A stretch of 64,000 nucleotides of DNA from a virus. Positions 17,650 to 48,851 of the stretch are shown piece after piece. How positions within the stretch are numbered: position 1 is the stretch's first letter; each line of letters starts with the position of its first letter. The notes under the pieces were generated by a model, which did no database searches, was not told the DNA's origin, and worked only from the letters and a program-made list of their open reading frames with translations. A program made the translations under genes and the position numbers. The stretch covers positions 64,001 to 128,000 of IMG/VR virus record IMGVR_UViG_3300025687_000001; one strand, 5' to 3'.

Positions 17650-17650
17650 T

Positions 17651-18154: not shown

Positions 18155-18356
18155 GTTTTTAGCCGAAGTGTTTGAGCGCGCGTCCCACGGAAACGTAGGG
18201 CTAGCTAATGTCATGAGTAGCGCCTCTCGGTACGGCATCCCTGCTTCGGACGCTCGTAGCCTGCTCAGGCTGGCTGTGCAGGAGCAGCGCCTGCCGGAGG
18301 CGGCTCTAAAAGAGGGGCTTGGTCGCTTCTTGGGGCTAAAATCTGGCAAAAGCTAA
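18141..18356 (+). CDS. small hypothetical protein
   Basis: GAGGAG RBS; operon packing. Confidence 0.5.
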   Translation: MAMDEFLAEVFERASHGNVGLANVMSSASRYGIPASDARSLLRLAVQEQRLPEAALKEGLGRFLGLKSGKS

Positions 18357-18359
18357 CGA

Positions 18360-20919: not shown

Positions 20920-21166
20920 ACGCGCAGGCTGCCCTGCGCGCTCCCTACAACTGGGAAAACCTAAAGCACTAATAGCTTGTACGGGACACAACGGCAGCTA
21001 TGTGCCCCAAACACGAGCAGACCCGCTCGAAAAACTACCGCCCCATAAGTTTTGCAATTCGATCGAGGCGTTAAAAGATGAAAGGCTGCTTGGTGATAAG
21101 GAACCCCCCTGGGCAGTCGGGTAGAGCCCTGTAGCTAGTGGATAAAAGCTAAAGAAACACCACACT

Positions 21167-21292
21167 GAGGGGTACTGGGTCGTCGGTGCGTAAGAACAAA
21201 ACTGGGTACCAATAGCCGCATCATAATTTACGCATGTGGGTATCAGCTTACCGTTACAGCGTAGTACCGCACCTAAGGCGACCCGGCCCCTC
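21167..21292 (+). ncRNA. candidate rod-shaped ncRNA with a central bubble
   Basis: GAGGGG-TGGGTCGTC-GGTGCG pairs with CGCACC-GGCGACCCGG-CCCCTC; followed by a T tract. Confidence 0.4.
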
Positions 21293-21300
21293 GCCTTCTT

Positions 21301-22092
21301 TTAGCTTCCGAAGTCTAGGAGGTCGTCCCAGCCCTTGGGATCCCACGCCAACTCTTGTACCTTACCCGACTTCTTCACCGTCATGCGGCGCATGGGGTCC
21401 AGATAGCTGTGCGGCAGTACGGTTACCGCCGTACGCTCAACGTTCATGCGGTCGCAGAGCTCGAGCGTGAGCGAGTTTAGCGTGTCTTTCTGCGCCTCAG
21501 TCCAAGGACCGCCCGCGGGCACAGCCAACAGGTCCACGCTGATGGACCCGGTATTGGGAGACGGAGCGCCTTCTGGCAAAAGCTGCGCCGGGGAATCGAG
21601 GCCCGGGAAAGCTTCTTTCCACGCAGCGTACCCCCCAGCGGGGGGCTGCGCAGCCAGGCTGCCACCTAGGGGGTGCGACCAGCGCTGCCAATCTGTACCC
21701 GCGTACAACTGCCGCACATTGGTCTTCCACCCAGCATGCCAGCCTTGTACTCCTAGCGGGAGGATCTGCCAGACGTAGCCGTCCCAGTCGATCAGGAAAT
21801 GCGTGCTTACGCCGTTGCCACTACGCGCGTAGTACCTGCAGGCGTAGCGCGCTACTTCGCGGCAGTCCTTTATGCCCTTGTCAAAGGCCTTCTGGACAAT
21901 CCCCGCTCCAGTCGTGTGCACCACTACAAAGCTAGCCGGGATGGTACGCTTGGAGAAGTCCCGCTCGTCTGGGATGCGCCGGTCGTGGGGAACTGAGGGA
22001 AGCCAGTCAACCATTTGGAGGTCGGGTTTTGGCTCCGGGGGGTTTTGCGGCGTTAGAAGGTCCCGCCAGACTTGGAAGAGTTCGTTGAGCAT
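21301..22092 (-). CDS. N-acetylmuramoyl-L-alanine amidase (Amidase_2 family)
   Basis: VVVHTT, STHFLID, WHAG, NTGSISV, TEAQ, PH..DP motifs. Confidence 0.85.
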   Translation of the reverse strand: MLNELFQVWRDLLTPQNPPEPKPDLQMVDWLPSVPHDRRIPDERDFSKRTIPASFVVVHTTGAGIVQKAFDKGIKDCREVARYACRYYARSGNGVSTHFLIDWDGYVWQILPLGVQGWHAGWKTNVRQLYAGTDWQRWSHPLGGSLAAQPPAGGYAAWKEAFPGLDSPAQLLPEGAPSPNTGSISVDLLAVPAGGPWTEAQKDTLNSLTLELCDRMNVERTAVTVLPHSYLDPMRRMTVKKSGKVQELAWDPKGWDDLLDFGS

Positions 22093-23786
22093 TACTCTTC
22101 AAACGCCTCCATCGTAACGTACCAAGCTACGTTGCCTCCTCCAATGCTTCGGGAGTAGCAGGTAGCAATAGAGTTGTCGGCTATGGTCAGCAGCAGATCG
22201 CCGGATCCTGTGCCGAACTGATCTGAGCCGCCGCACCTCAATTGCTGCTGGAATCCTGAGTGGTTGATAACGCGCAGCAGCAGGTTCGCTACTGAAGGTA
22301 GCGTAAGCATGTAGTCAGCCGCATTACCGCCAGTCAAGAAGTGCACGGGCTTAGAGTCGCTGATATCGTAGAGCGTTGTCATCGTATAAGTCTGCGAGGT
22401 GTACTGCACCGCAGTCTCTATACATAGAGCGTCCGCTCCCGTTACGCGGAGCTCCCCCCCGGAGGGTCCGTCTAGCCACAGCTTATCGACGCCACCGACG
22501 TTTGATAGGAACATAGTCGCCGTGTCGGAGCACGCATCAGACTCCAGCGACAACGTGGCAATGGCGCTTGCGTGGATATCCACGGTTTGCGTGTGTACGT
22601 TACTCCACCGTGCACCCCCTGCCCCCAAAGAGTGCGTGACGTCAGCGGCGGGTGCCACGTCCATATCGAAATACGCGGTGGCAAAATCATCAAACAAGAT
22701 TTCGCCGTTAGACCCTTCCCCGATCTGGAAGGGCTTGTTGAAGATCAGCTTCCCGTCACCGCTGTTAGACTCGTAAGTCATGCCTACGTCAGTATTAGCG
22801 CCCTCAACGTCTATGAAGACACCGATGCCCGCACTGACGTCATTGTACTCTGCTAACGCCACCTGCCCGTCATCTGTCACCACTGCTATCTGCGAGTTGC
22901 CTGCGTTCTCCACTACAAGACCATCGTAGTTGTATGGGTCTCGAGCTGGGTCGGCTGACACGATATGGACAGCGTGCTGTGGCAGCTCAATGCCGAGCCC
23001 CAGCTTCCCATCATCCTTCAGAGTAGCCCGCACAGACAGCGAGCTACCATCGTGAGTCAAAAACTTGAGCTCAGTGGCTGCATCGCCGGCGTGCCAGTTG
23101 CTCGCTGCTACAGCATCAATCCGCGCACCTTCTTCCCAGGTATCGATGTCCTCGAAGCCTCCAGCGGTATCATCGTGACCGGTGAATGCGATGGAGCCAA
23201 GGGTTTGTGCGTTAGAGACCGACTGGTCTGCCTGCGCTAGCACAAGCTTTGGCGCTGCGGTGTCGCTCTGCGCTATGCCCGAAACGTAGAAATTGCGGGT
23301 AGCGCAGAGGGTGTAATACTCCTCGTTCAGTTCGTTGGACGCAGCAAACGCCTTGATGCCCTCCCACAAAAGAGCCGGGAGCTTGTTGCACATCAACAGC
23401 AAGCGGTCAGGCGCTAGCGCGTAGCCTACTAGGGGGCCGTAGCGGATGAGCATGTCGAGCTCAGAGTCCCCGTACTGAAAATCACCCGCAGTGGAATCGC
23501 AAAACACCCAGTTGTTGATGCTGTAGGGCACTCCGCTCGCGTGGTACACCCCGGAGGTTTGTACGCGGCAAACACCGTGCGCAATACTGTAGCAGATACC
23601 TAGGACGTGGGAGTGCGTGCGGTCGGCTAGGTCCAGCTGCTCCGCGCCGCTGTCCCACATGACGGGTTTCCCGACCGCCACGGTAACGTCGTACGACGTG
23701 TAGTCCTGAAAAGACCCGCTAGGCGCGTCGATAGGCCCAACGACCCCCGCTACGACTTCACCTTGAACCTTGCGTTCGATTGCCAC
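22092..23786 (-). CDS. tail fibre/receptor-binding-like protein
   Basis: LGSIAFTG..GARIDA..LKF..GKLGLG..P and YSLG/RWSNVH-like fibre repeats. Confidence 0.55.
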   Translation of the reverse strand: MAIERKVQGEVVAGVVGPIDAPSGSFQDYTSYDVTVAVGKPVMWDSGAEQLDLADRTHSHVLGICYSIAHGVCRVQTSGVYHASGVPYSINNWVFCDSTAGDFQYGDSELDMLIRYGPLVGYALAPDRLLLMCNKLPALLWEGIKAFAASNELNEEYYTLCATRNFYVSGIAQSDTAAPKLVLAQADQSVSNAQTLGSIAFTGHDDTAGGFEDIDTWEEGARIDAVAASNWHAGDAATELKFLTHDGSSLSVRATLKDDGKLGLGIELPQHAVHIVSADPARDPYNYDGLVVENAGNSQIAVVTDDGQVALAEYNDVSAGIGVFIDVEGANTDVGMTYESNSGDGKLIFNKPFQIGEGSNGEILFDDFATAYFDMDVAPAADVTHSLGAGGARWSNVHTQTVDIHASAIATLSLESDACSDTATMFLSNVGGVDKLWLDGPSGGELRVTGADALCIETAVQYTSQTYTMTTLYDISDSKPVHFLTGGNAADYMLTLPSVANLLLRVINHSGFQQQLRCGGSDQFGTGSGDLLLTIADNSIATCYSRSIGGGNVAWYVTMEAFEE

Positions 23787-24614
23787 TTAGCCACCTACGA
23801 ACTGCTGGAGCATCTGGTAAGCCTGCTGCGGGTCAACTCCCTGCTGCAGGAGGTACTGGTAAGCCTGCTGCACCTGCTGCATCTGGTCCTGGCCGCCGCC
23901 TTGCTGTTGGGGCTGCTGAGGCTGCGCTTGCTGCTGCTGCCCCTGCATTTGCTGCTGGTACTGCTGGTAAGCCGGAGACTGCGTGTACTGCATCCACTGC
24001 TGCTGTACCATCTGCTCAGCTTGCTGAGGCGGAACCCCCTGCTGCACGAAACTCTGAAATAGCTGCTGCAGCTGCTGCATCTGCTGCGGGTCCGCCGAGG
24101 GTCCCGCCTGCTGCTGGGCCTGCTGCTGGGCCTGCTGCTGGGCCTGCTGCTGCTGGCCCCCGCCGCCCATTTGCTGCTGTGTATACGCCACCCACTGTCT
24201 CTGCAGCTGATCCTGGGCAGCCATGGGGTTCATGCCCTGTTGCACCATTTGCTGGTACATAGCCTGCAGCTGCTGCTTTTCCTGATCATTAGGACCGCTA
24301 GAGGGAACGTCCTGCGGACCGGCCTGCTGCATGTGCTGGGCGTAACCCATGACTTCTTGTTGGGCCTGCTGAGGCATCTGTTGCTGCTGGGCCTGCTGGG
24401 GCATCTGTTGCTGCTGGGCCTGCTGGGGCATCTGTTGCTGCTGGGGTCCCATCACTCCCTGGAGGTACTGCTGCGCCTCCTGGGGCTGTAGCCCCTGCGA
24501 GGTCAGGTACTGCATGGCCTGGCCGTAGTCGTCCATCATGCCGAGCTTAACCAGAGCCTCAAACCCTCCAAGGACGCCAGCCAGCTTAATGATCTCAGTT
24601 TCAGTAGTACGCAT
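23787..24614 (-). CDS. glutamine-rich low-complexity protein
   Basis: Poly-Q tracts and four xxQGxxPxxA modules; overlaps the upstream stop. Confidence 0.65.
   Translation of the reverse strand: MRTTETEIIKLAGVLGGFEALVKLGMMDDYGQAMQYLTSQGLQPQEAQQYLQGVMGPQQQQMPQQAQQQQMPQQAQQQQMPQQAQQEVMGYAQHMQQAGPQDVPSSGPNDQEKQQLQAMYQQMVQQGMNPMAAQDQLQRQWVAYTQQQMGGGGQQQQAQQQAQQQAQQQAGPSADPQQMQQLQQLFQSFVQQGVPPQQAEQMVQQQWMQYTQSPAYQQYQQQMQGQQQQAQPQQPQQQGGGQDQMQQVQQAYQYLLQQGVDPQQAYQMLQQFVGG
24357..24445 (-). repeat. 27-bp tandem repeat x3 encoding QQQMPQQAQ
   Basis: Repeated ctgttgctgctgggcctgctggggcat units. Confidence 0.7.
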
Positions 24615-25494
24615 TCATAGCCTCTTCCTCGCCTGGCTGGTTTAGCATGTGGTTGACCCCTAGCGCCATACCACCGGCACCCAAGAGACCAAGAGGGATC
24701 TTTCTAGACGCCGAGAGATTCTTGCCTAGCTGCTTGACCAGGTCTTCTCCGATAGCCTCAGGAGCCTTGCCCGCTAGGAACCTCATCTTCTGGAACGGAA
24801 TGTCGTGCTTCGCTGCTTCGGTGCTAAGCTCGACCAGCCTCTTGCGCCGGTCCCAGAAGCCATCGCCTCCTGTAGCCTTAAGCTTGTTCAGCAGCTCTCG
24901 CATGCGGAAGCGAGCCTCCAACTCAGAGCCAAAGTCCGCCATCTGGCTGCCCAGCTCGTAGCCCCCGTACCCCGACAGCCCAAGAACTAGGCCCTTGCCG
25001 AGGGCTTCATTCTTCGCCGGAGGCTGCTCATACTCTTGGTAGGCCAGTTTAGTAGTCATAAACGCATCAAAGCCCGCAGCGGCAGTCTTGGGCTTAGGCT
25101 CCGGCTGAAGTTTGGTAGCGTCAGTGCCCTGCGGTAACTTGCTGCTCACCGCGCTGGGCTGCGCACCCACACCCTGATTGACCGGAGCGTTAAGCAGACT
25201 ACCTGGAGCCTGCAGCGGCGCGTTGGGGTTAGCGCCCACAGACGGACCCGCCATGAGCGCCGTGAGAGCAGGGTTAGAAGCGAGAGCAGCGTTAGCTGGG
25301 GAAGTAGCTCCAGGCGCTACGGACCCCATTTGCGCTGCCTTCGCTGCTCTGTGCTCCTCAATGTCTTCCAGGAGAGCCTTGCTGCGCCGGTACTTCTTAG
25401 AAAGAAAACTTAAGAGCCCGTCTACACGAGCCAGGGTCTCCTCTTTAAGCGCCGGAGCTTCTTCTGGTAGTTTCTCAGGCTCAAGCTCAGCCAT
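24601..25494 (-). CDS. putative internal head protein
   Basis: KTAA and KLA motifs, two Gly-rich hydrophobic segments. Confidence 0.5.
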   Translation of the reverse strand: MAELEPEKLPEEAPALKEETLARVDGLLSFLSKKYRRSKALLEDIEEHRAAKAAQMGSVAPGATSPANAALASNPALTALMAGPSVGANPNAPLQAPGSLLNAPVNQGVGAQPSAVSSKLPQGTDATKLQPEPKPKTAAAGFDAFMTTKLAYQEYEQPPAKNEALGKGLVLGLSGYGGYELGSQMADFGSELEARFRMRELLNKLKATGGDGFWDRRKRLVELSTEAAKHDIPFQKMRFLAGKAPEAIGEDLVKQLGKNLSASRKIPLGLLGAGGMALGVNHMLNQPGEEEAMNAYY

Positions 25495-37300: not shown

Positions 37301-37977
37301 CCCTCCTTAGGGACCACCAGGAGGTCAAGGTCTTTTGGGTCGGGGTGGCCCCTCCCGGTGGAGCCTACAGTAGCCTGGTAGCGAATTTGGTCTGCTAGGG
37401 ACTCTGGGGCCGCACCACTCTGCTTAGGAAACAGCGAAGTATACCCAGACCTAAAAACCTCGGGCAGCGACCCCACGGTGGCCCCCGCCCCCGCCCCACC
37501 AAGAAGCGCGATCAGCTTGTGCTTGGGGAGCAGCTTTGTGAAGCCCTTGTTGGGGTGAGCTGCTTCCCAAATTGCGCCAGACAACGCCCCTGCTGCCGGC
37601 GCTACCCCTAGGGCTCGGTCCGTTAGCGTCGGCTCCTGCGATCCCGTGTTCCAGAACGCTTTCTTCTCCTCCTGCCCGCCAAACAGCGCCCGCACCGCCA
37701 AAGCTTCCTCGTCGCTGTACCCGCGCTCGGACCCCTTGTGAGCTCCGCCTACCCAGAGCCTGTCAGGGTAGAGATGAACCTGCCCCCGCTCAGTGTGCAG
37801 TCCGTAGTGCGGGCCGCGCTTGGACTCTCCGAAGTGCGCTCGAGGACCGAACTTGAGATGCACCGGTTCGTACTTAGAGCCAGGGCTCCGCTTAGCCGCG
37901 CGCTTCTTCTTGAGGCGCTCGATTTCCGCTATGAACTGTAGGAGCTCGTTCTGAGTCGGGGTACCTTGGTCGTTCAC
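31309..37977 (-). CDS. 2222-aa polyvalent multi-enzyme protein
   Basis: PolX-like GS..DLD and GYTFNRYGL; ART-like FRG..FTT; GNAT V.PEHRGKGLA; LigD phosphoesterase HWDLRL..SWAVP..YGAG; two GDIV..H..C domains; HELGH. Confidence 0.75.
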   Translation of the reverse strand: MNDQGTPTQNELLQFIAEIERLKKKRAAKRSPGSKYEPVHLKFGPRAHFGESKRGPHYGLHTERGQVHLYPDRLWVGGAHKGSERGYSDEEALAVRALFGGQEEKKAFWNTGSQEPTLTDRALGVAPAAGALSGAIWEAAHPNKGFTKLLPKHKLIALLGGAGAGATVGSLPEVFRSGYTSLFPKQSGAAPESLADQIRYQATVGSTGRGHPDPKDLDLLVVPKEGVTDLPKQPGVDVFKTTEEHFEPALAQWLRGKGIIHDKRLAKEKGYTFNRYGLHREGEPSITDLDEIYARIGREGGVPESLREELERWREFKKSSSAPISKYAARASTRQALALLEEVRPGITKEIKRLHAAGPDVGPKSNAAIADLLNPTTRQERKDWYGALERRFGVPESGKPGRGAGDVVDELIEGNAQRRRVGARADSAARELYRAHAWSGSKPAYQVRRDIAAATDSIRERAKGKHLPAADEVLLPSTGSAEILANPSSPTDVLFRGNALPEEGGKLVFTTRHPDVAAGYATGIVGEPSWAPVDGKLFAYSRSGAAGSYPEVHSHAVTKASDLWDRPYYERFVRDSNRTADPTSVVSTRNPTYEVPLFRRELEAPLGEYRVRPARDVQGNPAFAVRTVGGAPFAELLRTKTSEINFLMGDVAAGKTTLADKLRGHYDVVESPWARSELKKFSEEAGLPQGEFAPGIPYKLLLEANQEPYLRGYVRPRDKDRVRVPITVDGEIVGFHTPRQSRGSGMHRVGAIYVQPEHRGKGLAAQAIREHVAKHGDGIAFIETSNEPSRKAFLAAGFEEGDYEDRWGGGNWFRKKQSSEEFAPGIPASRQIHPIPEVQDANWRLTTQLHNANRAGKHWDLRLVDPETSRAHSWAVPRAQWPDEKRQKLLALLQPTHTADYAGWSGEIPEGTYGAGKVDAILDADTMVSSAPGKVEFDVPDQGKMRLLRTKDGKWLLTRVKTSAFWKSEKPTNLGQDFAAGLGPFGVWTSEYGARNQRAGISEGEHNLKQGVGIAGGLAGGGLLVPSMVTGLIEGFKGGAKGGWRGLGRGFLEGAAMPFRGVYHGRRATKLLDEAARAPKGYSRKLTRPEKDSLEFITGQTPVSTVMETGGNLGTPSASRKVREAIEAGDMSALTPLQQLDKGHLPPEVARAMQPAAQSGYNTFLAQLGIGAGIGGIGAGVQYSKGREGEKTGAALPWQQDEESHALRNSLMGVAAGVPAVTALTNRRAPLHTPGTSTHNFDYITANLKPGDIVLSGSDKGDPIRNLVAATQGSADYTHANVGWGPGKVLDIAPDRRHVMSDIGDAGINPERRVRILRHKDPAMASLTGEQDRAKFLQSMYGQHGDAPTYSVGKSVKSGLREILVPDPVAKLWGKLTNKQPKTPSQLGEEVRCAGGVCTVLPGGTMDPASKARQNKSLSSLLPRDIASDPSLETVLEYTPDPEEAKARAVRDLRAAGMSTEDAIAEVAKQQRSALRRDKLLRHAPNIARGAIGLGGAGAIYGLSKVNPEDVSVPEVAAGLGLGAAGAVPFLHKPLSMAAVNNYRKQINEYGDKRLRDIMAEGFSLDQAKAKVEADMQDFGRKIINDRGLVHVSPEGGFGVTADRNHPMNRGVESPTYDYSRRQAVQAHTPEFLAHELGHARDFENRARRSGALTLDDQIRAAIRTDMNAAPKRDTLKGALRVLRDETMANAYALQDLKKHRGLAETLRGAKRIAPAYSTYLLDVAKHLKKPGAALMAGGAGLGLHGLVADREKTSEDEESHAIRNSLMAAAAGMPALAAITNKRAPLHTPGSTTENWDAFIRQLPPGDVVLSGPGLSGNKQDMMKGFMGGSDFIHSNLMYDRYNAIDTLEGRENLISRMSESGMSPDRNVRILRRKDRTGGAAEARKGFSDRLAPDQKAFMNALTDEEGRALHYNNPKAIRAGLREVFVPDPVAKVYGKLTGRSNQTLAQAAREANCEGGICTTAPGGLMDRDSATRQRKSIGTILPSDIGSDDMYETITEYRPSQEALREIAIDRELEKGLSQEAAEASADKLLARQARRQKWLKHAPNLLRGAAAAGGAGAVYGASKINPEDVSLPEVAGGLGLAGMASLPFTQGGANLILNNEQGKALRRDLPEVIREYLAQPKDVVPNADYARRVLGRETREGMSALNKVRKTEGLLEALKQTRNVTPRQLSALVDYLGRMPKGLGTLLTAGGIGLAGHGLTADKELTAVDELKELLS

Positions 37978-38029
37978 GGCTTATCAGCCCCACATTAAGA
38001 CTAATTCAGTTATAAGATAATTGACCGAG

Positions 38030-38503
38030 ATGAACATCTTTGTATTGGACTCGGACCCCGCAAAAGCGGCTGAATTCCACTGTGATAACCACGTCGGAAA
38101 GATGCTGCTGGAGTCCGTGCAAATGCTCTCCACGGTGCGTCGACTCTACGGGTATACCGCGCCCTACAGAGCTACGCACCCAAACCACCCTGCGACTGTG
38201 TGGGTCAGGGAATCCAGAGCCAATTACGTTTGGCTGTATGACCTGGCTCGAGAACTAGACATCCAGCACGTCGCACGCTTTGGCACACGGCACAGCTCCG
38301 GCAAAGCACTGAGCAAAGTGCTCCTGGTGCCCGCTGAGCTCCCGGACACTCCGCGTACAAAGTTCGCTCAGTGCATGCCGCCCAAGTACCAGCACGCTGA
38401 CGCGGTCGTGGCCTACCGAAAGTTCTACGCTGGGGAGAAGGCGCACTTTGCTACCTGGCGCAACGAAGAGCCGTATTGGTGGCGAATTATGTGTCATAAG
38501 TGA
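38030..38503 (+). CDS. pyrimidine dimer DNA glycosylase (DenV family)
   Basis: MNIFVLD.DP..AA..HCD.HV.KMLLE..QMLST..H.NHP...W..YR.FY. Confidence 0.8.
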   Translation: MNIFVLDSDPAKAAEFHCDNHVGKMLLESVQMLSTVRRLYGYTAPYRATHPNHPATVWVRESRANYVWLYDLARELDIQHVARFGTRHSSGKALSKVLLVPAELPDTPRTKFAQCMPPKYQHADAVVAYRKFYAGEKAHFATWRNEEPYWWRIMCHK

Positions 38504-38507
38504 ACAC

Positions 38508-38777
38508 ATGGAAGCAATGCCAGCGTTGTTGGCTCTCACTGCGCCGTCTCTGGCGCGCGGGCCCAACTACCGCCCTTCGCGGCTACACCAAGCCGCTGTA
38601 GAATACTACCTGGGGTGCATACCTACTCAGTACGCGCCCCAGCTTGTCAAAACCTGCCGTGCCTGGCTCCGCCGCCAGCTCACCTGGAGCCACGTTGTCG
38701 CTGCTTGGGCTGCTGCGTGGGAGAACTACTACCGAACTTCTCCGCCGCACCTCATTCGAGAAGTACGATGCCCATAG
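38508..38777 (+). CDS. hypothetical protein
   Basis: ATG 7 nt after promoter-like GTCATAAG. Confidence 0.45.
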   Translation: MEAMPALLALTAPSLARGPNYRPSRLHQAAVEYYLGCIPTQYAPQLVKTCRAWLRRQLTWSHVVAAWAAAWENYYRTSPPHLIREVRCP

Positions 38778-39064
38778 CGTACACCGGGTGCGAATGCGGC
38801 ACTTGTACGCGCGTAAAGGTCTCCGGCAGCTCCCTAAGCATGAACCACGTGAGCTTTGTAACCTTCGGGATCGGATCCAAGGGGCTGCCGACCTTATTTG
38901 GCATCTCCGCACTGAAGCCCGGGGCGAAATACGTCAAAGAAATGGCAGTGGCGTACAGTAGGCTGAAGAAGCGTAACTGGGCTCCGGAGAACATGGTCTG
39001 CTGGGACTGTGGTGCCCCTGTGGAACTGGTAGGAGATCTGGATGGCGGGGCTGCTAGCGCTTAG
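38768..39064 (+). CDS. Zn-finger-like hypothetical protein
   Basis: CECGTC..CWDCG; ATG at 38768. Confidence 0.45.
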   Translation: MPIAYTGCECGTCTRVKVSGSSLSMNHVSFVTFGIGSKGLPTLFGISALKPGAKYVKEMAVAYSRLKKRNWAPENMVCWDCGAPVELVGDLDGGAASA

Positions 39065-39320
39065 CGCTTTCCTGGGTTTCCTGGCTGGTGCTGCTTGCGC
39101 TGCTTTCAGCCTGGTCAGGGTCTGGTCTCCACAACGCAATAAGTACTTGGAGCGCCGAGCACGCCTCAAGGTCATCGAGGACCTGCGCTTCGAGGCTCGC
39201 GCCTACGACGCCAAAGCTCGCTCTGCGTGGCAGCCGTTTTACATGAACAAATATGCTGCGCGCGCAGAGCAACTACGTCAGCAAGCACAAGACCTAGCGT
39301 ACAAGGAAGAGTCCCTTTAG
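39042..39320 (+). CDS. membrane-anchored hypothetical protein
   Basis: N-terminal hydrophobic helix, GGAG RBS. Confidence 0.5.
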   Translation: MAGLLALSAFLGFLAGAACAAFSLVRVWSPQRNKYLERRARLKVIEDLRFEARAYDAKARSAWQPFYMNKYAARAEQLRQQAQDLAYKEESL

Positions 39321-39350
39321 GACTCCTTCCTTTTAGCCTAGACTTAGGCT

Positions 39351-39863
39351 ATGCGATTTACTCCGTACCTAGCTGCAATCGTTAGCGCGTGGCCCGGCCT
39401 GACTTTAGCTCAGGCTACAGCTGCTTCTGTCAACAAGGGCACCACGTTCACCCTGGAGCTGGTGCTTGCACTTGGTACTGCACTCCTAGCCGTGGGAGCC
39501 TTTGTCCAGAAGTCGAGGCAGATGGAAAAGTCGCTGGAAGAAGCCAGCAAAGAACGCAGGCTACTCTCCGACACAGCGACCAAGATCGAGAAGGACATCA
39601 TTCAGATGGGCAACAGGGCCACAGAGCACGGCCTGGCCGAAGTCGCAACCAGTGTGGCTCAGGCGATGATCATGATGGGGGGAGTGGCGGAGCGGTTAGA
39701 ACGGTCTCAGGAGGCCTTAGAGACCCGCCTGCGAGAATGCGAACGTAACGCCGACCAGACAACTGCGGCATTCCGGGAATTGGCCAAAGCCGCGGGCAAC
39801 GCCGATGAGATGTACCGGCAGCTCAACGCAATGGAGAGGCGTATCGACCGGTTGGAGAGGTAG
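39351..39863 (+). CDS. signal peptide/TM plus coiled-coil protein
   Basis: Two hydrophobic N-terminal segments then heptads. Confidence 0.6.
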   Translation: MRFTPYLAAIVSAWPGLTLAQATAASVNKGTTFTLELVLALGTALLAVGAFVQKSRQMEKSLEEASKERRLLSDTATKIEKDIIQMGNRATEHGLAEVATSVAQAMIMMGGVAERLERSQEALETRLRECERNADQTTAAFRELAKAAGNADEMYRQLNAMERRIDRLER

Positions 39864-39865
39864 CA

Positions 39866-40219
39866 GTGTCCAGCGTAGAAATCCCGCTGGTGCTGGTTGT
39901 TGAGGATAACAACACCGACTACGATCTTCTGGTTGAGCAGCTAGTTACTGAGTACCTGCTTGTTCGAGCCAAGGATGGCTCTGCCGCTATTGAGATGCTC
40001 CTCGGCGGGGCAACCTACTACGCCGCTATCATTGACCTATTGCTTCCGGGGACCAAGACGGGGGCTGATGTGTCCCTAGTCGCAGCGGACCTCGGGGTGC
40101 CTGTACTCATGCTCACTACCACACCAGCGCTAGCGCAAATGTCAGGTTCACTGGGCAGTATCATGGAAAAGGGGGCTGCGCCGGAGGCGGTCCTTACTTG
40201 GTTACGGAGTCTGACGTGA
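39866..40219 (+). CDS. single-domain response regulator (REC)
   Basis: VVEDN, IDLLLPG, MLT, EK. Confidence 0.8.
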   Translation: MSSVEIPLVLVVEDNNTDYDLLVEQLVTEYLLVRAKDGSAAIEMLLGGATYYAAIIDLLLPGTKTGADVSLVAADLGVPVLMLTTTPALAQMSGSLGSIMEKGAAPEAVLTWLRSLT

Positions 40220-40605
40220 GAGTGCTTCTGATCGAGGACTGCCCAGACGATGAGGTCAGGTCCCTAGCAGCTTTGCAGGCGACAGAGATGCCCCTGAACG
40301 TAACGGTGGCGCATAACAGCGGTGATGCGAAGAAGTCCCTGGAGGAGTCCGGTCCCTGGGACATAGTCCTTGTGGACTTTCGACTGCCTGGGAGCATCGA
40401 CGGGGTGACGCTGGCCGAGCTGGCTATGGAGTTGTACCCCGACGCACGGGTCGCGATGTTGACCGGACTCCCCGAAGCAGCGTCTCGTGCGTTAAAAGAC
40501 AACCGTATCCTGGTGTTTGGTAAGGACATCTTCTTGCGTGGGCACGTCGCAGCGCTGGTCCACGACGCTTCTATCCAGCCGGGCACGTTGTACGCGGTAG
40601 GCTGA
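40216..40605 (+). CDS. single-domain response regulator (REC)
   Basis: LIEDC, VDFRLPG, MLTG, GK; GTGA-coupled start. Confidence 0.85.
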   Translation: MRVLLIEDCPDDEVRSLAALQATEMPLNVTVAHNSGDAKKSLEESGPWDIVLVDFRLPGSIDGVTLAELAMELYPDARVAMLTGLPEAASRALKDNRILVFGKDIFLRGHVAALVHDASIQPGTLYAVG

Positions 40606-41888
40606 TGTTTCGGTTAACTGTTGACGCGAAGGGGGTTATTGTCGAGGCGGATGCAGCCGCCTCGCGTCTCCTCGAGAGAGAGCTTGTCGGCGTCTCTGTA
40701 GACGTCCTGGCCGGAGGAGACCACGCCCGTCTACGAAAAGCTGTTGCCCCGGACGAGGCCCGGCCAATGGCGCGGACGCTAAAGCTCGGTCAACGGTATG
40801 TGGACGTCGCGTTTGGTGCTGCCGACGTAAGCAGCAGCCGCCACGTTTGGGTCGCAGACCGAACAACAGAGACCACCGTGTTGCGGCTTTTAGAGCTTGG
40901 CTTGGATCTGGCCTGTACCGCAACAGACGGCTTACATTTTGATTACCTTTCTCCGTCCTGGGAAAAAACACTAGGCTGGTCGCTGGAAGAACTTCGAGCG
41001 CGGCCGTTTGTAGAGTTCGTACACCCGGAAGACGTCCCAGCCACAGCGGCGGTGGCCGAAGAGATGCTCGCTAGTCAAGGTGTGGTGCAGCTGTTCCGCA
41101 ACCGCTACCGGCACAAGAGCGGTTCCTGGGTCTGGCTGGAGTGGATGGCGCGGGTCGCGGACAACATGTTTTGGGCGAGTGCTCGCGACGTGACTCGTTT
41201 GGTCGAGGTCGAAGCTCGACAGACACGCACCTTACGAGAGATGGAGCAGTTCAGTTACGCCGCCGCCCATGATCTGAAGGCGCCGTTACGCCGCATTACC
41301 AGTCTCGCCAGGAGCGCCGTGATGGCGCTGGAAGCCGGTGATAACGAGAAGCTGGTCAAGCGGCTGGAGCAGATCGCTGCCGCCGGAGAAGACGGGTCCT
41401 CGGTCGTCGAGGCAGCGTTGGAGTACGCATGCCTCGGGGGCGAAGTCACGACTGCCCCGGCGGATGTGGAGGATGCCATAGGCGCAGCTCTGAGGCGATC
41501 GGGTGTCCTTCACGGCGGTGCCCCCCTTTCCGCTAAAGGTCCCGAGGGGGTCACTGTGCGGTACCACAAGGAGGGGCTCGTCGCGGCTATCACTAATCTG
41601 CTCGACAACGCGAAGAAGTACGGTGACGGTTCTGCCATCTCCATCACGTGGGACAATAGTGCGCACGGCGGTGCGTGGATTGCCGTGGCAGACCAAGGCC
41701 GCGGTTTCGACCCCGAGTGGGCAGAGCGGGTGTGGGAGCCGGCGTGGAGAGGGCATAGTGACGTGGCAGGACACGGCTTCGGACTGGCCAAAGTACGAAA
41801 GCTGATTGAATCAATGGGCGGCGCCGTGCGGGCGTCGTCCCCCGGTCCGGGCAAGGGGGCCGTCTTTGTGATCGAGTTGGAGCTATGA
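40605..41888 (+). CDS. PAS-domain sensor histidine kinase
   Basis: PAS LGWS.EEL..VHPED; H box AHDLKAPL; N box NLLDNAKKY; G1 DQGRG; G2 GHGFGL. Confidence 0.92.
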   Translation: MFRLTVDAKGVIVEADAAASRLLERELVGVSVDVLAGGDHARLRKAVAPDEARPMARTLKLGQRYVDVAFGAADVSSSRHVWVADRTTETTVLRLLELGLDLACTATDGLHFDYLSPSWEKTLGWSLEELRARPFVEFVHPEDVPATAAVAEEMLASQGVVQLFRNRYRHKSGSWVWLEWMARVADNMFWASARDVTRLVEVEARQTRTLREMEQFSYAAAHDLKAPLRRITSLARSAVMALEAGDNEKLVKRLEQIAAAGEDGSSVVEAALEYACLGGEVTTAPADVEDAIGAALRRSGVLHGGAPLSAKGPEGVTVRYHKEGLVAAITNLLDNAKKYGDGSAISITWDNSAHGGAWIAVADQGRGFDPEWAERVWEPAWRGHSDVAGHGFGLAKVRKLIESMGGAVRASSPGPGKGAVFVIELEL

Positions 41889-41889
41889 A

Positions 41890-42327
41890 ATGGGTGGGTA
41901 CGCAGAGCCGCTGCATGTAGTCGTCTGCGACGACGACGACGTGGATGCTGAGCTAATAGTAGAAGCGTTGGAACGTGAAAGTGTCGCGGACAGCTATACT
42001 CATGTAGACAGCGGTCCAGCACTACTTGCTTACTTGCGAGACCCGAAGACTCCGAGACCTTGCCTCATCCTGCTCGACCTCTCCATGCCGGGTATGAACG
42101 GTCACGACACCCTAAGGGCCGTACGCGGTGACCGCAGCATTCGCGACATCGTAGTCTGCGTTTACTCGACGTCAGGCGAGCTACGAGATGTGCGCGAGGC
42201 ACACGAGATCGGCGTCCAAGGCTATCTCAAGAAACCAGGCACAGCACCGAACGAGACGGAGCGGGTGGTGCGCGGCATCATGGCGCACTTAGAGTACTTC
42301 ATCCTGCCGCACCCTCCGAGGGTGTAG
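41890..42327 (+). CDS. single-domain response regulator (Rcp1-like)
   Basis: CDDDDVD, LLDLSMPGMNG, STS, YLKKP. Confidence 0.9.
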   Translation: MGGYAEPLHVVVCDDDDVDAELIVEALERESVADSYTHVDSGPALLAYLRDPKTPRPCLILLDLSMPGMNGHDTLRAVRGDRSIRDIVVCVYSTSGELRDVREAHEIGVQGYLKKPGTAPNETERVVRGIMAHLEYFILPHPPRV

Positions 42328-42399
42328 TCGGACCCCCACTACCCCCCTACGCCCGCAAAACCCTATACTTGCTGCACCAGACCATAGTGGGCGGTCAGT

Positions 42400-42708
42400 A
42401 TGCAGCGATTGTGGATGATTGCACAGGCAGATAACGGGTTTACCTGCTCTGACGTAACTGGGTCAACTAGAACGGTGCACGCCGGGGAACCCGCTGAGGC
42501 CTTGGCTGATTTGCTGTTTGAGCACTTTGAGAGCCTGTTCCGAACCAAGCACCGAGGCGGCCTGGTTATTCGCGTAGCGGGGCGTCGTACATCGGAAGAT
42601 GACATCCTGGCAGCCGCCTACGAGGTAATCGACGCCCTGCCTCCGGAACTAAGAAGCCCTGTAGCTCGGGCGCTCAACCTGCTGCAGGGAGTAGACAGCG
42701 ATGCGTGA
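42400..42708 (+). CDS. hypothetical protein
   Basis: ORF overlapping the next start. Confidence 0.5.
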   Translation: MQRLWMIAQADNGFTCSDVTGSTRTVHAGEPAEALADLLFEHFESLFRTKHRGGLVIRVAGRRTSEDDILAAAYEVIDALPPELRSPVARALNLLQGVDSDA

Positions 42709-43981
42709 AGACTTAGTAGCGACTGCTCGCGAGCTGTACGCACGCTACCAAAGCAGCCGAGAAGTAGCGCGCCGTATGGGCGTGCACAGGTCCACGGTCT
42801 CTCGTTGGTTAGCCGGAACGCAGGCCCCCACAGGTCCCACACAGACCGCAGATTCCTCGCAGCGCAAAGAGCTAAAAGACAGCATCGAAAACGGCGTACG
42901 CACTATTGAGTCCAACGATGTAGCTACGCTCGAGGACCTCTTGGCGGAGGCTAAGGTCGACCTGGATGAGTGGTTGGTGGTCAAATACAACGTCGGCTAC
43001 CACGTCGTAACCATCAAGGCCAAGCAGGCTGACGGTACACACAAACTCATCAAATCTAGGAACCCTAAAATCAACGCGGTCCTAGAGCGCCGTCCCTCCT
43101 TCTTTGCCCCTGTTGTACGACCTGTAACACCACTAAAGCGCCGTGCAGTCCCGACCACTCCTGACGGAGTGGCACTAATTCTCCCGGACTCCCAGCACGG
43201 TTTTCGCCGCAAACCTGGCGGAGAGTTGGACCCTCTGCACGATGTACGCGCGTGCGACGTAGCCCTGCAGACCGCGGAGTTGCTTCAGCCGGATGAAATC
43301 GTGCTCTTGGGTGACATGTTGGATCTAGCCCCGTGGAGTTCGTACGCGCAGGAGCCCGAGCTCAAGTACACTACGCAACCCGCTATCGAGGCTCTCGCTG
43401 CCTGGCTGGGCGGCTTGAGGAAAGCGTGCCCCTCTGCGAAAATCACGTACCTCGAGGGCAACCATGAGCACCGAATCATTAAGAAACTCAACGACGTACA
43501 TGACGAAGCCTCTACTCTCCGCGGACCTGACTCAGACCTGCCTCTTCTTTCCATCCCCTATTTACTATCTCTCAGCTCCTTGGATATCGACTATGTCGGA
43601 CCGTACGGAGCTAGCTACTGGCTCTGGGGGGTTAGAATTCATCACGGCAATGTGGTCCGTGCACGCGGTGGGGACACCGCGGGGGCAATGTTAGCTCGAG
43701 CTACACACAGCCAGATCGTAGGGCACATCCATCGCCGTGAGGTGGCCTCCCGACGCATACGCACCGAGCACGGGCCGCAGACTGTTACAGCCCTAAGCCC
43801 TGGTTGCTTATGCCGGGTGGACGGCGCAGTGCCCCACAAGCAGGGGGCGGAGGTAGACTGGCAGCAGGGAATGGCGCTGGTCTACAGGCACGAAACTCGT
43901 GCTCAGTCTGTGCAACTCGTACCTATCAACGACGGCGTCGCGTACGTCCATGGGCACAAAATTGAATCCAAAAACGATTAG
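42701..43981 (+). CDS. HTH plus calcineurin-like metallophosphoesterase
   Basis: HTH REVARRMGVHRSTVSRWL; DxH, GD..D, GNHE, HG, GHIH. Confidence 0.85.
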   Translation: MREDLVATARELYARYQSSREVARRMGVHRSTVSRWLAGTQAPTGPTQTADSSQRKELKDSIENGVRTIESNDVATLEDLLAEAKVDLDEWLVVKYNVGYHVVTIKAKQADGTHKLIKSRNPKINAVLERRPSFFAPVVRPVTPLKRRAVPTTPDGVALILPDSQHGFRRKPGGELDPLHDVRACDVALQTAELLQPDEIVLLGDMLDLAPWSSYAQEPELKYTTQPAIEALAAWLGGLRKACPSAKITYLEGNHEHRIIKKLNDVHDEASTLRGPDSDLPLLSIPYLLSLSSLDIDYVGPYGASYWLWGVRIHHGNVVRARGGDTAGAMLARATHSQIVGHIHRREVASRRIRTEHGPQTVTALSPGCLCRVDGAVPHKQGAEVDWQQGMALVYRHETRAQSVQLVPINDGVAYVHGHKIESKND

Positions 43982-44357
43982 CACTGTCCTCGGAGCGGTC
44001 ACGGCTCTCTTTTTAGCCTGGTCTCAGCTAAAAGAAGTGCAAGTGCGCGCACAGAAGACGGCGATAGAAGTTGCAGGCGCTGCTCGCGCTGAAGCGCTAG
44101 CCACAGCTGCCCCCGTCACAAACGCGTGCGCTCGGGAGGTAGAAGCTCTTCGTGCCGAGTTTGACCTGGAGCGGCAGCTTCACATTAAGACCCGCATAGA
44201 GGTGCGTCGATTGCAGAGCTCTGCTCTGGTACGCCGGGACTCTCTGGAATGGGACGCTAGAGAGCTTCGCGAGGCGCGCGGCGAAGTATTCACCGGCCCC
44301 GAAGTTGACCTGGACTCACTGAAGCCTCCCGAGCGGGTCCTCCTGCCTAAGCTTTAA
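43962..44357 (+). CDS. membrane-anchored coiled-coil protein
   Basis: TM then coiled coil; start uncertain (TTG). Confidence 0.45.
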   Translation: MNPKTISTVLGAVTALFLAWSQLKEVQVRAQKTAIEVAGAARAEALATAAPVTNACAREVEALRAEFDLERQLHIKTRIEVRRLQSSALVRRDSLEWDARELREARGEVFTGPEVDLDSLKPPERVLLPKL

Positions 44358-44358
44358 T

Positions 44359-44368
44359 CTGGTATAAG
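44359..44368 (+). promoter_or_regulatory. promoter motif CTGGTATAAG
   Basis: TG plus TATAAG, 8 nt before ATG. Confidence 0.6.
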
Positions 44369-44376
44369 CGGTTAGC

Positions 44377-44727
44377 ATGGAACCATGTAACTGCACCACT
44401 CGTCGTGTGGACCGACGCAGCACCTGCTCCAACGCAGTTGCGCTAAACCTGACCTACGGCGAATTCAATCTTTTCGGCGCCTGGCCTGAAGACACTGATG
44501 AGCAGCCTCTAGCTGGAAGCCTGACCGGCACCATGAGCCGTATTACACCGGCCAACCCCGACTACGTTTTCATAGCGCGCGCAATGCTGCACGCCATCCT
44601 ACGCAAGGGCTGGGTAGAGCGTATCAGCCCTTGCAAGGTTCGCATCACCGAGTCTGGCAAAGCTCTTCGCGAGCAAATCCGCTCTACGCCACACTGGCAA
44701 AAGACCGAGCCTAGACGAGAAGAGTAG
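44377..44727 (+). CDS. winged-helix-like protein
   Basis: ILRKGWVER..VRITESGK wing motif. Confidence 0.5.
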   Translation: MEPCNCTTRRVDRRSTCSNAVALNLTYGEFNLFGAWPEDTDEQPLAGSLTGTMSRITPANPDYVFIARAMLHAILRKGWVERISPCKVRITESGKALREQIRSTPHWQKTEPRREE

Positions 44728-44825
44728 TGGAGCTGACCCTGACAGACCCTGCCACCTTGTTCTTGGTGGTGGTTTGTTCCGGGTTGCTTGCTCGCGCGAT
44801 CAGCAGCTATCTTGGCTGGTAGAGT

Positions 44826-44875
44826 GCTGGGGGCTAGTTTGCCAGCTACGGGTACAACCCAAACTAGCCCCCAGC
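44826..44875. repeat. perfect 16-bp inverted repeat
   Basis: GCTGGGGGCTAGTTTG / CAAACTAGCCCCCAGC. Confidence 0.75.
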
Positions 44876-44976
44876 CGCTGGGAACTCGGACCGCGGAGGG
44901 ACTAGGCGGGGGTGGGGCGACGCAGCGAGATACCCGTTAGCCCGCGACCTCCTACTATTTAGCTCAGGAGAATTAG

Positions 44977-45261
44977 GTGGCCCAGGACAGTCATCTAGGC
45001 ATGTCTTCTTTCGAGAAACGCGAAGCACTAGGCATTGTTGTGCTGTTTGCTCTGCTGATGTCGTTGACCTGTAGCGTAATCACCTGCGGAACACCCAACA
45101 ACACGGTCACTAAGTGCAGGGAGTGTAGTGTCGCTGCAGACTGCTACTACGGCGAAAAGTGCGGCTGCCCCATCGTAAGCGTAGGCGGCCGAAACCAGCG
45201 CCACTGCGGCGTGTGCGAGCCTAGCCTCTCCTCCGCTGAGAGCTACACCTGCGAGCTCTAG
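44977..45261 (+). CDS. membrane-anchored Cys-rich protein
   Basis: TM followed by a Cys-rich domain; AGGAG RBS. Confidence 0.5.
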   Translation: MAQDSHLGMSSFEKREALGIVVLFALLMSLTCSVITCGTPNNTVTKCRECSVAADCYYGEKCGCPIVSVGGRNQRHCGVCEPSLSSAESYTCEL

Positions 45262-45344
45262 TTTCTGGTAAAAGAAGGGGATGGAGACATCCACTTCGGC
45301 CTCGTTGGAGGCCAAAAAGAGACACACTAAAACGGAGCTAGAAG

Positions 45345-45608
45345 GTGGCTGACCCCCGCCTACTCCACCCCCTAAACCGTCCCCCTCCAAGTCTGCGTAG
45401 CCTGTACTCGTTCACCGAGTTCGAGAAGCTCATCTACGCCGCCTCGTACGCTTCCTGGTACGCCAGGGAGGTTGCCCAGCACGTGGACCAAGGCCGCGGC
45501 TACCCAGACTCTGGGTACCAGGTTCGGGCTGCTGAGGAAGCCCACACTCACGCTATAGATGCGGTCCTGGCTCTCCGCGCACAGGTTGCAGGCGTTGATG
45601 AGTTCTAG
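45345..45608 (+). CDS. hypothetical protein
   Basis: Operon packing. Confidence 0.45.
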   Translation: MADPRLLHPLNRPPPSLRSLYSFTEFEKLIYAASYASWYAREVAQHVDQGRGYPDSGYQVRAAEEAHTHAIDAVLALRAQVAGVDEF

Positions 45609-46361: not shown

Positions 46362-47127
46362 GGCTGTGTCAGCCCTAGGCAAAGCCTCGGCTATCTTGAA
46401 AGGCCAAGGGTGGGAGAACACCTTCACTGGAGCCATCCAGCACCCGAAAATCCACAGCATGGATCTTCCGGTGCACAAGAGCGTCTACGCCCACCCTGAC
46501 GGGCGCGCCATGCACCTTCGGATGTTCTACAACGACTACGACACGGTAATCCTCGAGACCCCAGAAGGCCCCTCCATGCTGCACCACACGCAGCTTACTC
46601 GGGAGACGCTGTGCCCACACTAACCGACATGAGCAAGCCCCTTCAGGTACGCGTTGCTCGAGAGGACTTCCGCACAGACCCCGACGACGGGCTGTGCCCG
46701 TACCACTCTCTGTGCGAAAAGCGCGCGGGGCACCACGGACGCTGTGCTAACGGCAACCTGTCCTGGCTCACGAACAAGGCTCGCCCTGAGTTGTATTGGG
46801 GCGCTGACTTCGCTGATGCCTGGATGGAGCGCCACAAGCCGTACCTGAGAAAGAAGAAGCGCAAGTGACGCACGCCTGGCTTGCCAGCACGTACAGCATC
46901 TGTGGTCTACTGGCTTACTTCGGTATCCTGATGACCGCCGTGCTGGCTGTGCACCAGAACCCTCCCGCTACAAGTGACAAGGAGTCGCGTGGAGAGCAGA
47001 TCGTGCTGCTCTTCATGCTAGCGCTGGTTTGCATGGTCACGTGGCCTTTGCTGCTTGCGCTGCTTCTTGGGAAAACCACAAAGGATGGGAGCCTGGATTG
47101 ACTCCCTATCTTTCATAAGAAACCGAG

Positions 47128-47661: not shown

Positions 47662-48851
47662 GCAGCGCCCGCGCCGAGACCGGCGTAATGCAGTTTGGGG
47701 ATGACTGGCCGGGATACTTCATCCGCGGCGACAACGTCATCCACATAAGGTTCGTTCTCAAGGGTCTGAGCGACGACCCGCCCGAAGGCATCGGGGTCCT
47801 GGAGTGGGCGCAGTTCCGCGCCGCCCTCGAGGACATGACCCGGTGCCTGCACAACGATAACCCTGAGCAGAAGCTCAAGGATTGGAAAGATGTCGTCGCG
47901 GGTGTGGAGTAGCAAATGGCAGCCCACCACTCCGCCCGAGGGCAAGACTGACATCCCCAACCACACTCGATACTGGCCACGCACCGCTAAATGCAGTTGT
48001 TGTGGCCAGCGTCGGGTTGTGTGGATGAACGACGAGAGCCGACAAGGCCCAGACGGTGTTCTCTACTCCAAACGTCCGGGGTGCCAGAAGTGCTGTGAGA
48101 AGGGGGCGTGGAGAGCGGTGGAAGAGACTAGCGATGAGTAAGAAGCTTAGCCTCCGCCTCGGCTGGAAGCGCAACGCCGGCCTCGTTTGCGTTGCCTACA
48201 AGGCCTACACTGTTCACCTTGGTGTGCAGCCTCGAGACTGGCTGTGGGGCCCTGCGTACAGCTGGTACGATGGGTCCCTCCTGGAGTTTGGTCTTGGGCC
48301 GTGGATGCACGCAAATTGGTGCGAGTGTGCCAGTGAACCTGGGGACGTAGAACCTCCTGGTTGGCTGCAGGACTGGGTGGAGAAGCATGGCTGCCGGTGA
48401 GTACGGGTTGTACGAGCATGTGGCTACCGGCAACCGCGACGGGTGGGTGTGGTCCTAGTGTCGACGCCCCCCGCACCGGTAAACCCAGGGGCGCAGCCTG
48501 CGTCTACCAACAACGCTAACCTCGCAAGAGGCTTCAAGAATTTGGAGATGGATTGCCCCGCCCACGACACCTCTTCCTAGCACTAGCAGCGTCAGCAGAG
48601 CTACGCACTGCTTTGGCTGAGAGCGACGCAAACCTGAAGCTCTCGGAACCCCTGGAAGCGCTGCACCTCGCTGCTTGCGTTGTGAAAACGCTCGATAGCC
48701 AGCGGGGGGCTCCTCTGACAGCCGAGGATTCTCGGCTGTACAGAGAGCTACGCTGCTTGCCCCGCAACCACCCCTTGCGCCCCAGGCATCGTAGCTACTA
48801 GGAAGCGGAGGCCTCGCCTCTCCTTCCTTTTATGTGGCACAAGATAAGGAC

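Follow-up and report, generated by a model that had tools for sequence, protein, structure and literature searches.

A run of five genes on the plus strand of a virus genome, at positions 39351-42327 of the 64,000-nucleotide stretch analysed here (the window; bases 64001-128000 of the IMG/VR record IMGVR_UViG_3300025687_000001), encodes a small two-component signalling cassette. The products are, in order, a membrane protein with a coiled-coil-like tail (TMcc), two stand-alone receivers (REC1 and REC2), a sensor histidine kinase, and a third stand-alone receiver (REC3). The cassette is probably (roughly 60%) a functional, phage-maintained, branched two-component module, in which the receivers would act by protein binding. 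Because an intact signalling operon of the bacterial type forms part of a complete phage genome, the virus probably uses this cassette to monitor the condition of the cell it infects. The domains are ordinary bacterial ones. It is the setting that is unusual: the set is owned by a phage, there is one kinase per three output-less receivers, and the membrane partner is a near-orphan.

Organization and phage origin of the cassette

TMcc (39351..39863; all five genes are on the plus strand) is a protein of 170 aa having a signal-peptide-like N-terminus, one transmembrane (TM) helix, and a helical, coiled-coil-like tail. It is followed by REC1 (39866..40219; 117 aa), a divergent stand-alone receiver, and by REC2 (40216..40605; 129 aa), a stand-alone receiver whose GTG start codon lies inside a GTGA overlap with the stop codon of REC1. 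The sensor histidine kinase (40605..41888; 427 aa) is soluble and has the PAS-HisKA-HATPase arrangement, and REC3 (41890..42327; 145 aa) is a stand-alone receiver of the Rcp1 type. The junctions are, in order, a 2-nt gap, the 4-nt GTGA overlap, a 1-nt overlap, and a 1-nt gap. A first-pass annotation of the same DNA had described a tightly coupled run of TM coiled-coil, receiver, receiver, soluble PAS kinase, and Rcp1-like receiver genes, and all five are found in the list of open reading frames (ORFs) at these positions. As for REC2, its assignment as a receiver gene is retained, but the start codon given earlier, TTG at 40198 (135 aa), is not: the public gene calls use GTG at 40216 (129 aa), which is most likely the start.

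No output domain, helix-turn-helix (HTH) or other, was found by Pfam in any of the five cassette proteins, in agreement with the earlier statement that a DNA-binding output is lacking. The phospho-Asp, H, N, and G boxes had also been described as intact, and the residues in question could be read from alignments of the kinase and the three receivers. The cassette kinase is the sole HATPase_c match in the whole genome, which thus has no second kinase, and the HPt domain (PF01627) gave no match genome-wide at E ≤ 0.05. A multi-step His-Asp-His-Asp phosphorelay was rejected, since the genome is without HPt and the TMcc family is without a conserved His.

The source record (160,861 bp) has direct terminal repeats, the exact repeat being 386 bp, and is 100% complete according to CheckV. 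The surroundings of the cassette include genes for a baseplate wedge protein, a head maturation protease, the subunits of a multisubunit RNA polymerase, and an Amidase_2 lysin. The complete genome, the terminal repeats, and these phage genes bear out the proposal that the cassette is phage-encoded. Each of the five proteins is present without a single difference on 8-10 contigs, which come from JGI/IMG, ENA, and Logan and include a separate assembly of 160,191 bp. The GC content, GC3, and codon-preference score of the five genes are within 1.1 standard deviations of those of 104 other long ORFs, and among 3-kb windows the cassette ranks at the 20th percentile in its tetranucleotide distance from the genome. 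No cellular homologue of the cassette proteins exceeds about 43% identity.

The first-pass annotation had named two circumstances under which its reading would fail. One of them, mis-assembled host DNA, is ruled out by the identical proteins on 8-10 contigs from three sources. The other, a recent unselected capture, is unlikely in view of the phage-like composition and the distant (33-43%) cellular relatives. Together with the completeness of the genome, this means that a chimera or a recent capture is very unlikely. It is hard to maintain, in more general terms, that the cassette is an inert passenger or an artefact, whether a chimera or a captured host operon in decay. The nearest phages have no such cassette, REC3 is frameshifted in one assembly, and a terminator-like hairpin lies directly upstream, all of which would fit an inert passenger. 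However, no catalytic residue has been lost in the run of five coupled genes, the genome is complete with its terminal repeats, identical proteins come from three independent sources, the composition is indistinguishable from that of the phage, and cellular homologues above 43% identity were not found.

Kinase, receivers, and membrane protein

In the kinase, Pfam detected PAS_3 (54.5 bits) and HATPase_c (64.2 bits), together with HisKA at a sub-threshold 19.7 bits (cut-off 26.9). A PAS-like N-terminal segment (aa 1-95) precedes the PAS_3 domain (aa 103-197; nt 40911-41195, plus strand), the HisKA/DHp region with H222 (aa 213-277; nt 41241-41435, plus strand), and the HATPase_c domain with the N, G1, and G2 boxes (aa 323-426; nt 41571-41882, plus strand). 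The phospho-acceptor H222 is in AAAHDLKAPLRRI, an H-box of the HDLKAPL form, and aligns to EnvZ/HK853, to the relative P0002, and to a Methylobacter kinase. P0002, from a 194.6-kb JGI contig, is the best relative of the kinase, and the ATP-site residues N335, D363/G365/G367, and G389/G391/G393 are identical in it. The PDB matches are the kinase cores of EnvZ, HK853, and a bacteriophytochrome. The closest cellular kinases, from metagenome-assembled genomes of Actinomycetota, are 33-36% identical, and a metagenome scan with the kinase alignment returned bacterial PAS kinases only, the contig of P0002 not being among the matches.

The hydropathy profile of the kinase contains no hydrophobic or TM segment. 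The earlier annotation had proposed that a cytoplasmic cue is sensed, and this is the natural reading, because the kinase is predicted to be soluble. The sensory region gave matches to PAS families only in Pfam, with no GAF or PHY domain, and no cofactor motif was recognized in it by eye. HisKA kinases use Thr or Asn at the H+4 position (E/DxxT/N motif) for phosphatase activity. The H-box of the phage kinase is HDLKA, with Ala and not Thr or Asn at H+4, which suggests that its phosphatase activity is weak. Weak phosphatase activity would in turn make a role of the extra receivers as phosphate sinks plausible.

Against the Pfam family Response_reg (PF00072; cut-off 30.2 bits), REC3 scored 58.3 bits, REC2 29.5 bits (E 9e-7, below the cut-off), and REC1 a sub-threshold 18.2 bits. 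The pocket of REC3 is composed of D14-D15, D63, S95, and K115, with Y112 as the aromatic switch and K115-P116 as the Lys-Pro pair. The Lys-Pro pair and the aromatic switch, located three positions ahead of the Lys, are frequent in receivers though not universal, and here they are present in REC3 alone; REC1 has I-M-E-K-G and REC2 has V-F-G-K-D. The top PDB matches of REC3 are 4zyl (RphyB), 1k66 (RcpB), 6xvu, 1k68 (RcpA), and 1i3c (Rcp1), and a Deinococcus bacteriophytochrome regulator is among its best solved relatives, so that the earlier label "Rcp1-like" is appropriate. Judged from its sequence, REC3 is Rcp1-like but is not a phytochrome regulator, because the kinase is PAS-only, without GAF or PHY. 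In relatives of REC3 at 54-58% identity, which come from short ENA and Logan contigs, every pocket residue is kept, and D15, D19, D63, S95, and K115-P116 are kept in relatives at 42-58% identity. The closest cellular relatives, from Methylobacter, Aquabacterium, and Thiobacillus, are 39-43% identical.

In 57 of the best 80 bacterial loci, a receiver gene homologous to REC3 follows a HisKA kinase gene of the same strand at a distance of no more than 250 nt. In Methylobacter svalbardensis (locus L148), for example, the order is a 492-aa PAS-PAS-HisKA-HATPase kinase, a 138-aa receiver, and a hybrid kinase; this kinase aligns over its full length to the phage kinase and has the same SHDLKAPL box. 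Since the order of kinase and then receiver is common in bacteria, the kinase and REC3 are an ordinary bacterial pair residing in a phage, and the conservation of this order makes REC3 the likely cognate partner of the kinase.

REC1 and REC2 are more difficult to place by sequence. The AlphaFold2 (AF2) model of REC1, obtained with a 35-row alignment, has a pLDDT of 89.6 and five strand-helix units. Its best PDB matches in Foldseek are all receiver domains, with TM-scores of 0.77-0.86, and a phmmer search against the PDB also gave receivers only (best E 0.0055). The receiver fold of REC1 is confirmed at the level of this model, despite the sub-threshold Pfam score. Its pocket is formed by E13-D14, D57, T86, and K102. 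The corresponding residues of REC2, in the 129-aa numbering, are E7-D8, D54, T83, and K103; those in the C-terminal half were read by eye, as MAFFT misaligned that half. REC2 matches phrog_5982 at 7.7e-10 and receivers in the PDB down to 4e-5, and is 38% identical to the C-terminal receiver of the hybrid kinase P0023. A word-based search found no relative of REC2 besides itself.

The N-terminus of TMcc ends with AQA and is followed by a short stub and, according to hydropathy, a TM helix at about residues 30-52. The C-terminal region of about 118 aa is helical and is predicted to face the cytoplasm, on the basis of the positive-inside rule and the conserved AxA site. TMcc belongs to no Pfam family. 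When 1.84 billion representatives were searched exhaustively with HMMER, P0139 and P0140 were the only relatives obtained, and P0141 is a member of the 90% cluster of P0139. These three relatives (28-30% identical) share the signal-peptide-like start ending with AxA, one TM helix, a helical tail, and a C-terminal RAAG motif. The AF2 model of TMcc is all-helical and of low confidence (pLDDT 59), too weak for a fold search, and its atlas matches, which all score <0.9, were treated as noise. As far as these searches reach, TMcc, REC1, and REC2 are near-orphan genes. P0135, a relative of REC3 at 54% identity, and P0141 are each found on six Logan contigs, which hints at a related phage carrying both REC3-like and TMcc-like genes. 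The conservation seen in the relatives of REC3 and TMcc argues for purifying selection.

The cassette would probably work as follows. A dimer of the kinase would bind or sense an intracellular signal of the infected cell via PAS_3, autophosphorylate H222, and pass the phosphoryl group to D63 of REC3. REC1 (D57) and REC2 (D54) would be extra acceptors, providing either parallel outputs or sinks that set the lifetime of the signal. As no DNA-binding or enzymatic output is present, the phosphorylated receivers would have to act through protein binding. The nearest candidate for the target is the co-translated TMcc, with its helical tail of about 118 residues predicted to be cytoplasmic. The membrane or energy state, superinfection exclusion, the timing of lysis, and control of the phage RNA polymerase are candidates for the downstream effect. 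A bolder version is a virus-autonomous decision circuit, in which a kinase encoded by the virus responds to a metabolic or redox cue of the infected cell and the atypical receivers, depending on their phosphorylation, bind the virus-only TMcc, thereby gating a membrane event such as the timing of lysis, superinfection exclusion, or membrane energization. This version is speculative, and we regard it as rather unlikely.

Neighbouring genes, expression, and lysis

The cassette is in a long plus-strand block of small genes that begins at 38021 and lies opposite the gene of a 2222-aa polyvalent protein. The first gene of the block (38021-38503, plus strand) matches phrog_624, "DNA binding protein", at 1.3e-48; it also gave a weak match to pyrimidine-dimer glycosylase of 19 bits, below the cut-off. 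A gene for a 92-aa protein (39042..39320, plus strand), which has an N-terminal TM helix and a basic helical tail, is separated from the cassette by a hairpin. This protein belongs to no Pfam, PHROG, or PADLOC family and accompanies the cassette proteins on the same 10 contigs. It is considered as a candidate member of the cassette only.

The hairpin, which is terminator-like and followed by a T-tract (39303..39335, plus strand), is at the end of the 92-aa gene and 16 nt before the start of TMcc. Its calculated energy is -24.4 kcal/mol (z -3.8; none of 200 shuffled sequences was as stable), and a terminator scan agrees. A second small hairpin (39340-39347) abuts the ATG of TMcc. Since the first hairpin ends just 16 nt ahead of the TMcc start codon, transcription probably enters the cassette by reading through the hairpin, and expression may be attenuated. 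The 13-mer tail of this hairpin, CTCCTTCCTTTTA, has a single further exact copy in the window, at 48820-48832, where it is the tail of another hairpin (48800-48832) preceding a plus-strand gene at 48834. Both hairpins have z values of about -3.7. The hairpins sharing this tail may represent a phage-specific type of terminator or attenuator.

Downstream of the cassette, the plus-strand genes at 42400..44727 encode orf102, an HTH-metallophosphoesterase, a TM and coiled-coil protein, and orf116. The next terminator-like site on the plus strand found by the scan is only at 44749-44772, and these genes are therefore probably co-transcribed with the cassette; they are candidate members only. The HTH-metallophosphoesterase fusion (42701-43981, plus strand) matches phrog_20266 at 2.9e-51 as well as HTH families. 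It is a widespread phage gene, with relatives at 35-46% identity in about 30 IMG/VR contigs, mostly of 10-55 kb, and no kinase or receiver is beside the relatives at the 39 IMG/VR loci inspected. The TM and coiled-coil protein (43950-44357, plus strand) has an N-in, i-spanin-like shape and matches phrog_9090, "membrane protein", at 9e-4. Further downstream on the same strand are a Cys-rich 94-aa protein with a signal-peptide-like start (44977-45261) and a 78-aa protein with two TM helices and a holin-like shape (46865-47101).

No sigma-70 promoter was found in 37500-45500, which is uninformative as the phage has its own RNA polymerase. The beta/beta'-like genes of this multisubunit enzyme are outside the window, at 16896-18677 and 20389-24735 of the genome. 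The motif YATAAG, at 25566, 38011, 44363, 47114, and 61590, occurs 10-16 nt before several plus-strand starts, and CATAAG is present in 8 of 80 upstream gaps, where 0.8 is expected. In the window overall, YATAAG is not enriched (27 found, 29 expected), and it was not used for defining the operon. A role as a promoter or start-site element for the phage RNA polymerase is conceivable. It should be mentioned that the 97 kb of the genome beyond the window yielded no tRNA genes.

The first-pass annotation had proposed that the phage times lysis through the membrane protein. According to this explanation, TMcc would be antiholin- or spanin-like and the relay would time lysis, or another membrane event, by the physiology of the host. 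TMcc does match Rz-like spanin PHROGs at 23.4 and 16.9 bits (phrog_739, E 1e-4), small membrane proteins are nearby (at 39042, 43950-44357, and 46865-47101, the last being the 78-aa protein with two TM helices), and deferral of lysis by a regulator has been proposed elsewhere, in a phage that would use the host CtrA pathway for "lytic deferment" (PMC9437464). The CtrA case is similar in that a phage exploits two-component signalling to read the state of the host, but it relies on a host regulator and DNA binding sites and has no phage kinase with output-less receivers. On the other hand, no stretch of TMcc passes the threshold in the spanin matches, which look like coiled-coil noise, and the predicted cytoplasmic coiled coil is opposite to that of an i-spanin. 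With three relatives of TMcc in the 1.84 billion representatives, no widespread family linked to lysis is detectable. None of the small membrane or envelope ORFs near the cassette matches a lysis PHROG (holin or spanin). The sole recognizable lysin, Amidase_2 (21301-22092, minus strand; 52 bits, endolysin/amidase PHROGs at about 2e-9), is among structural-side genes, 17 kb from the cassette and on the opposite strand, with no holin-like ORF beside it; Phage_lysozyme gave no match, and SLT gave a sub-threshold match far from the cassette. The proposal thus finds no support in the gene positions, and a lysis or membrane-event timer seems improbable. The specific assignment of TMcc as an Rz-type i-spanin was rejected on account of the weak PHROG matches, the predicted cytoplasmic coiled coil, the distance to the lysin, and the lack of an o-spanin in or beside the gene.

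Relation to other systems and biological meaning

The large RNA polymerase subunit of the phage (1448 aa) shares 34-35% identity with its counterparts in Vibrio phages D69, D148, and D181 and Salmonella phage Arash, and 40% with the counterpart on one 90-kb IMG/VR fragment. Because D69, Arash, and this fragment, which are among the nearest by RNA polymerase, are without the cassette, it is not a trait of the lineage but an accessory module, limited to this phage and perhaps some close relatives. The first-pass annotation had proposed to look for synteny in other phages. None of the IMG/VR loci scanned holds a close copy of the cassette, whether the scan was made with the kinase, P0002, the phosphoesterase, the N-terminus of the giant neighbour, the upstream 160-aa gene, the RNA polymerase, the reverse transcriptase, or the REC3 family, and tblastn with all cassette proteins against every retrieved locus did not reveal one either. 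Among deposited phages, blastn gave no match, tblastn with TMcc gave none, and REC3 had five weak matches only. The kinase matched 23 of 50,697 deposited records, several of the 23 being bacterial contigs. The earlier statement that two-component sets are rare in phages is therefore roughly right, with the reservation that families of kinases and receivers, of unknown function, already exist in PHROGs.

One deposited phage has a comparable set. In Microcoleus phage My-WqHQDG (OR578706.1, 88856-91946), a cyanophage, the gene of a HisKA kinase is followed by those of two receivers and of a coiled-coil protein whose one TM helix is C-terminal. The signalling cassette is unrecognized in the record, where one receiver is annotated as such but the 545-aa kinase (HATPase_c 94 bits) and the second receiver (46.7 bits) are listed as hypothetical proteins only. 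The two phages are alike in genome size (about 163 kb in My-WqHQDG), in having a kinase with a similar H-box (SHDLQEPL) and stand-alone receivers, and in the overlapping or abutting of the genes. In contrast, the gene order in My-WqHQDG is reversed, with the membrane protein last, and the N-terminal region of its kinase is hydrophobic. The kinases are 28% identical, in the core only, the membrane proteins have no sequence similarity, and the phages are unrelated at the RNA polymerase. Among deposited phages, the membrane protein and the second receiver of My-WqHQDG are unique to their own record. Its cassette is an independent analogue and speaks in favour of a functional module in the present phage. 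Ectocarpus siliculosus virus EsV-1 is also a virus with two-component signalling, but it encodes the hybrid histidine kinases (PMC6324907) of a eukaryotic giant virus. A survey of jumbo phages discusses only a non-signalling receiver variant, and no characterized phage-encoded kinase-receiver system was found in the literature searched.

The Cph1-Rcp1 and bacteriophytochrome pairs and the Methylobacter-type operon resemble the phage set in the SHDLxxPL-type H-box and in the stand-alone receiver directly after the kinase. Unlike the phytochrome pairs, the phage kinase has PAS_3 and a short PAS-like segment and no GAF/PHY photosensory module. Unlike the Methylobacter-type operon, the phage adds two divergent receivers and a membrane protein upstream and has no hybrid kinase downstream. 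The phage set differs from bacterial kinase-receiver operons in general in being phage-encoded and 25-43% identical to them. CheA of Sinorhizobium with CheY1 and CheY2 forms a branched system having a phosphate-sink receiver; chemotaxis components are, however, missing from the phage cassette. In the Detocs system (DtcA/DtcB/DtcC), one kinase also serves several receivers, and the stand-alone receiver DtcB was shown genetically to buffer phosphate (bioRxiv 10.1101/2023.01.24.525353). The phage cassette is not host defence but phage-encoded, and it lacks a receiver bearing an effector. Its identity as Detocs was rejected: there is no PADLOC match for the kinase or receivers at E ≤ 0.01 and no effector domain.

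In another explanation, close to the rewiring of host phosphorelays proposed in the first-pass annotation, the cassette is directed against the host and not at a phage partner: the receivers would drain host kinases, including those of Detocs-like defences, or the phage kinase would phosphorylate host regulators and thereby reprogramme the cell. The presence of three output-less receivers per one kinase and the buffering by DtcB are in line with this. REC1 and REC2 are unlike an Rcp1-type partner, REC2 resembling the receiver of a hybrid kinase, and the plus-strand block of small genes around the cassette resembles a host-takeover region. Furthermore, interference of phage proteins with two-component systems of the host has precedent, as in PIT4 (PMC10714779). 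However, a pure decoy needs neither its own sensor kinase nor translational coupling, and the 25-43% identity to cellular proteins argues against mimicry of a particular host protein. In addition, no PADLOC or Detocs profile matches the cassette proteins. Interference with the host is thus an unlikely explanation, though one to be kept in mind.

Several observations weigh against a functional, phage-maintained module. The strong terminator-like hairpin is directly upstream, so that expression of the cassette may be low or conditional. Neither HATPase_c nor a receiver was found in the nearest kin by RNA polymerase (D69, Arash, and the 90-kb IMG/VR fragment), and the block as a whole may not be conserved. 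REC1 and REC2 are without the Lys-Pro pair and the aromatic switch and may not signal canonically. P0133, a variant of REC3 on a 148,137-bp JGI contig, matches REC3 exactly up to residue 91, after which the frame is shifted. Either the assembly is in error at this point, or REC3 is dispensable and P0133 is a natural knockout in one population. The proposed link between the receivers and TMcc comes from adjacency and coupling only, the model of TMcc being of low confidence.

Lytic phages are usually viewed as fixed programmes or as eavesdroppers with a single receptor. If the cassette is a selected kinase-receiver circuit owned by the phage, some large phages process information on the host cell themselves. 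The differing switch residues of the receivers, together with the soluble kinase, which should be easily expressed, and the complete genome, make the cassette useful for telling outputs from sinks, and the near-orphan TMcc may represent a new kind of two-component output. If the decision circuit also proved true, it would mean a new class of two-component output and a new mode of decision in lytic phages.

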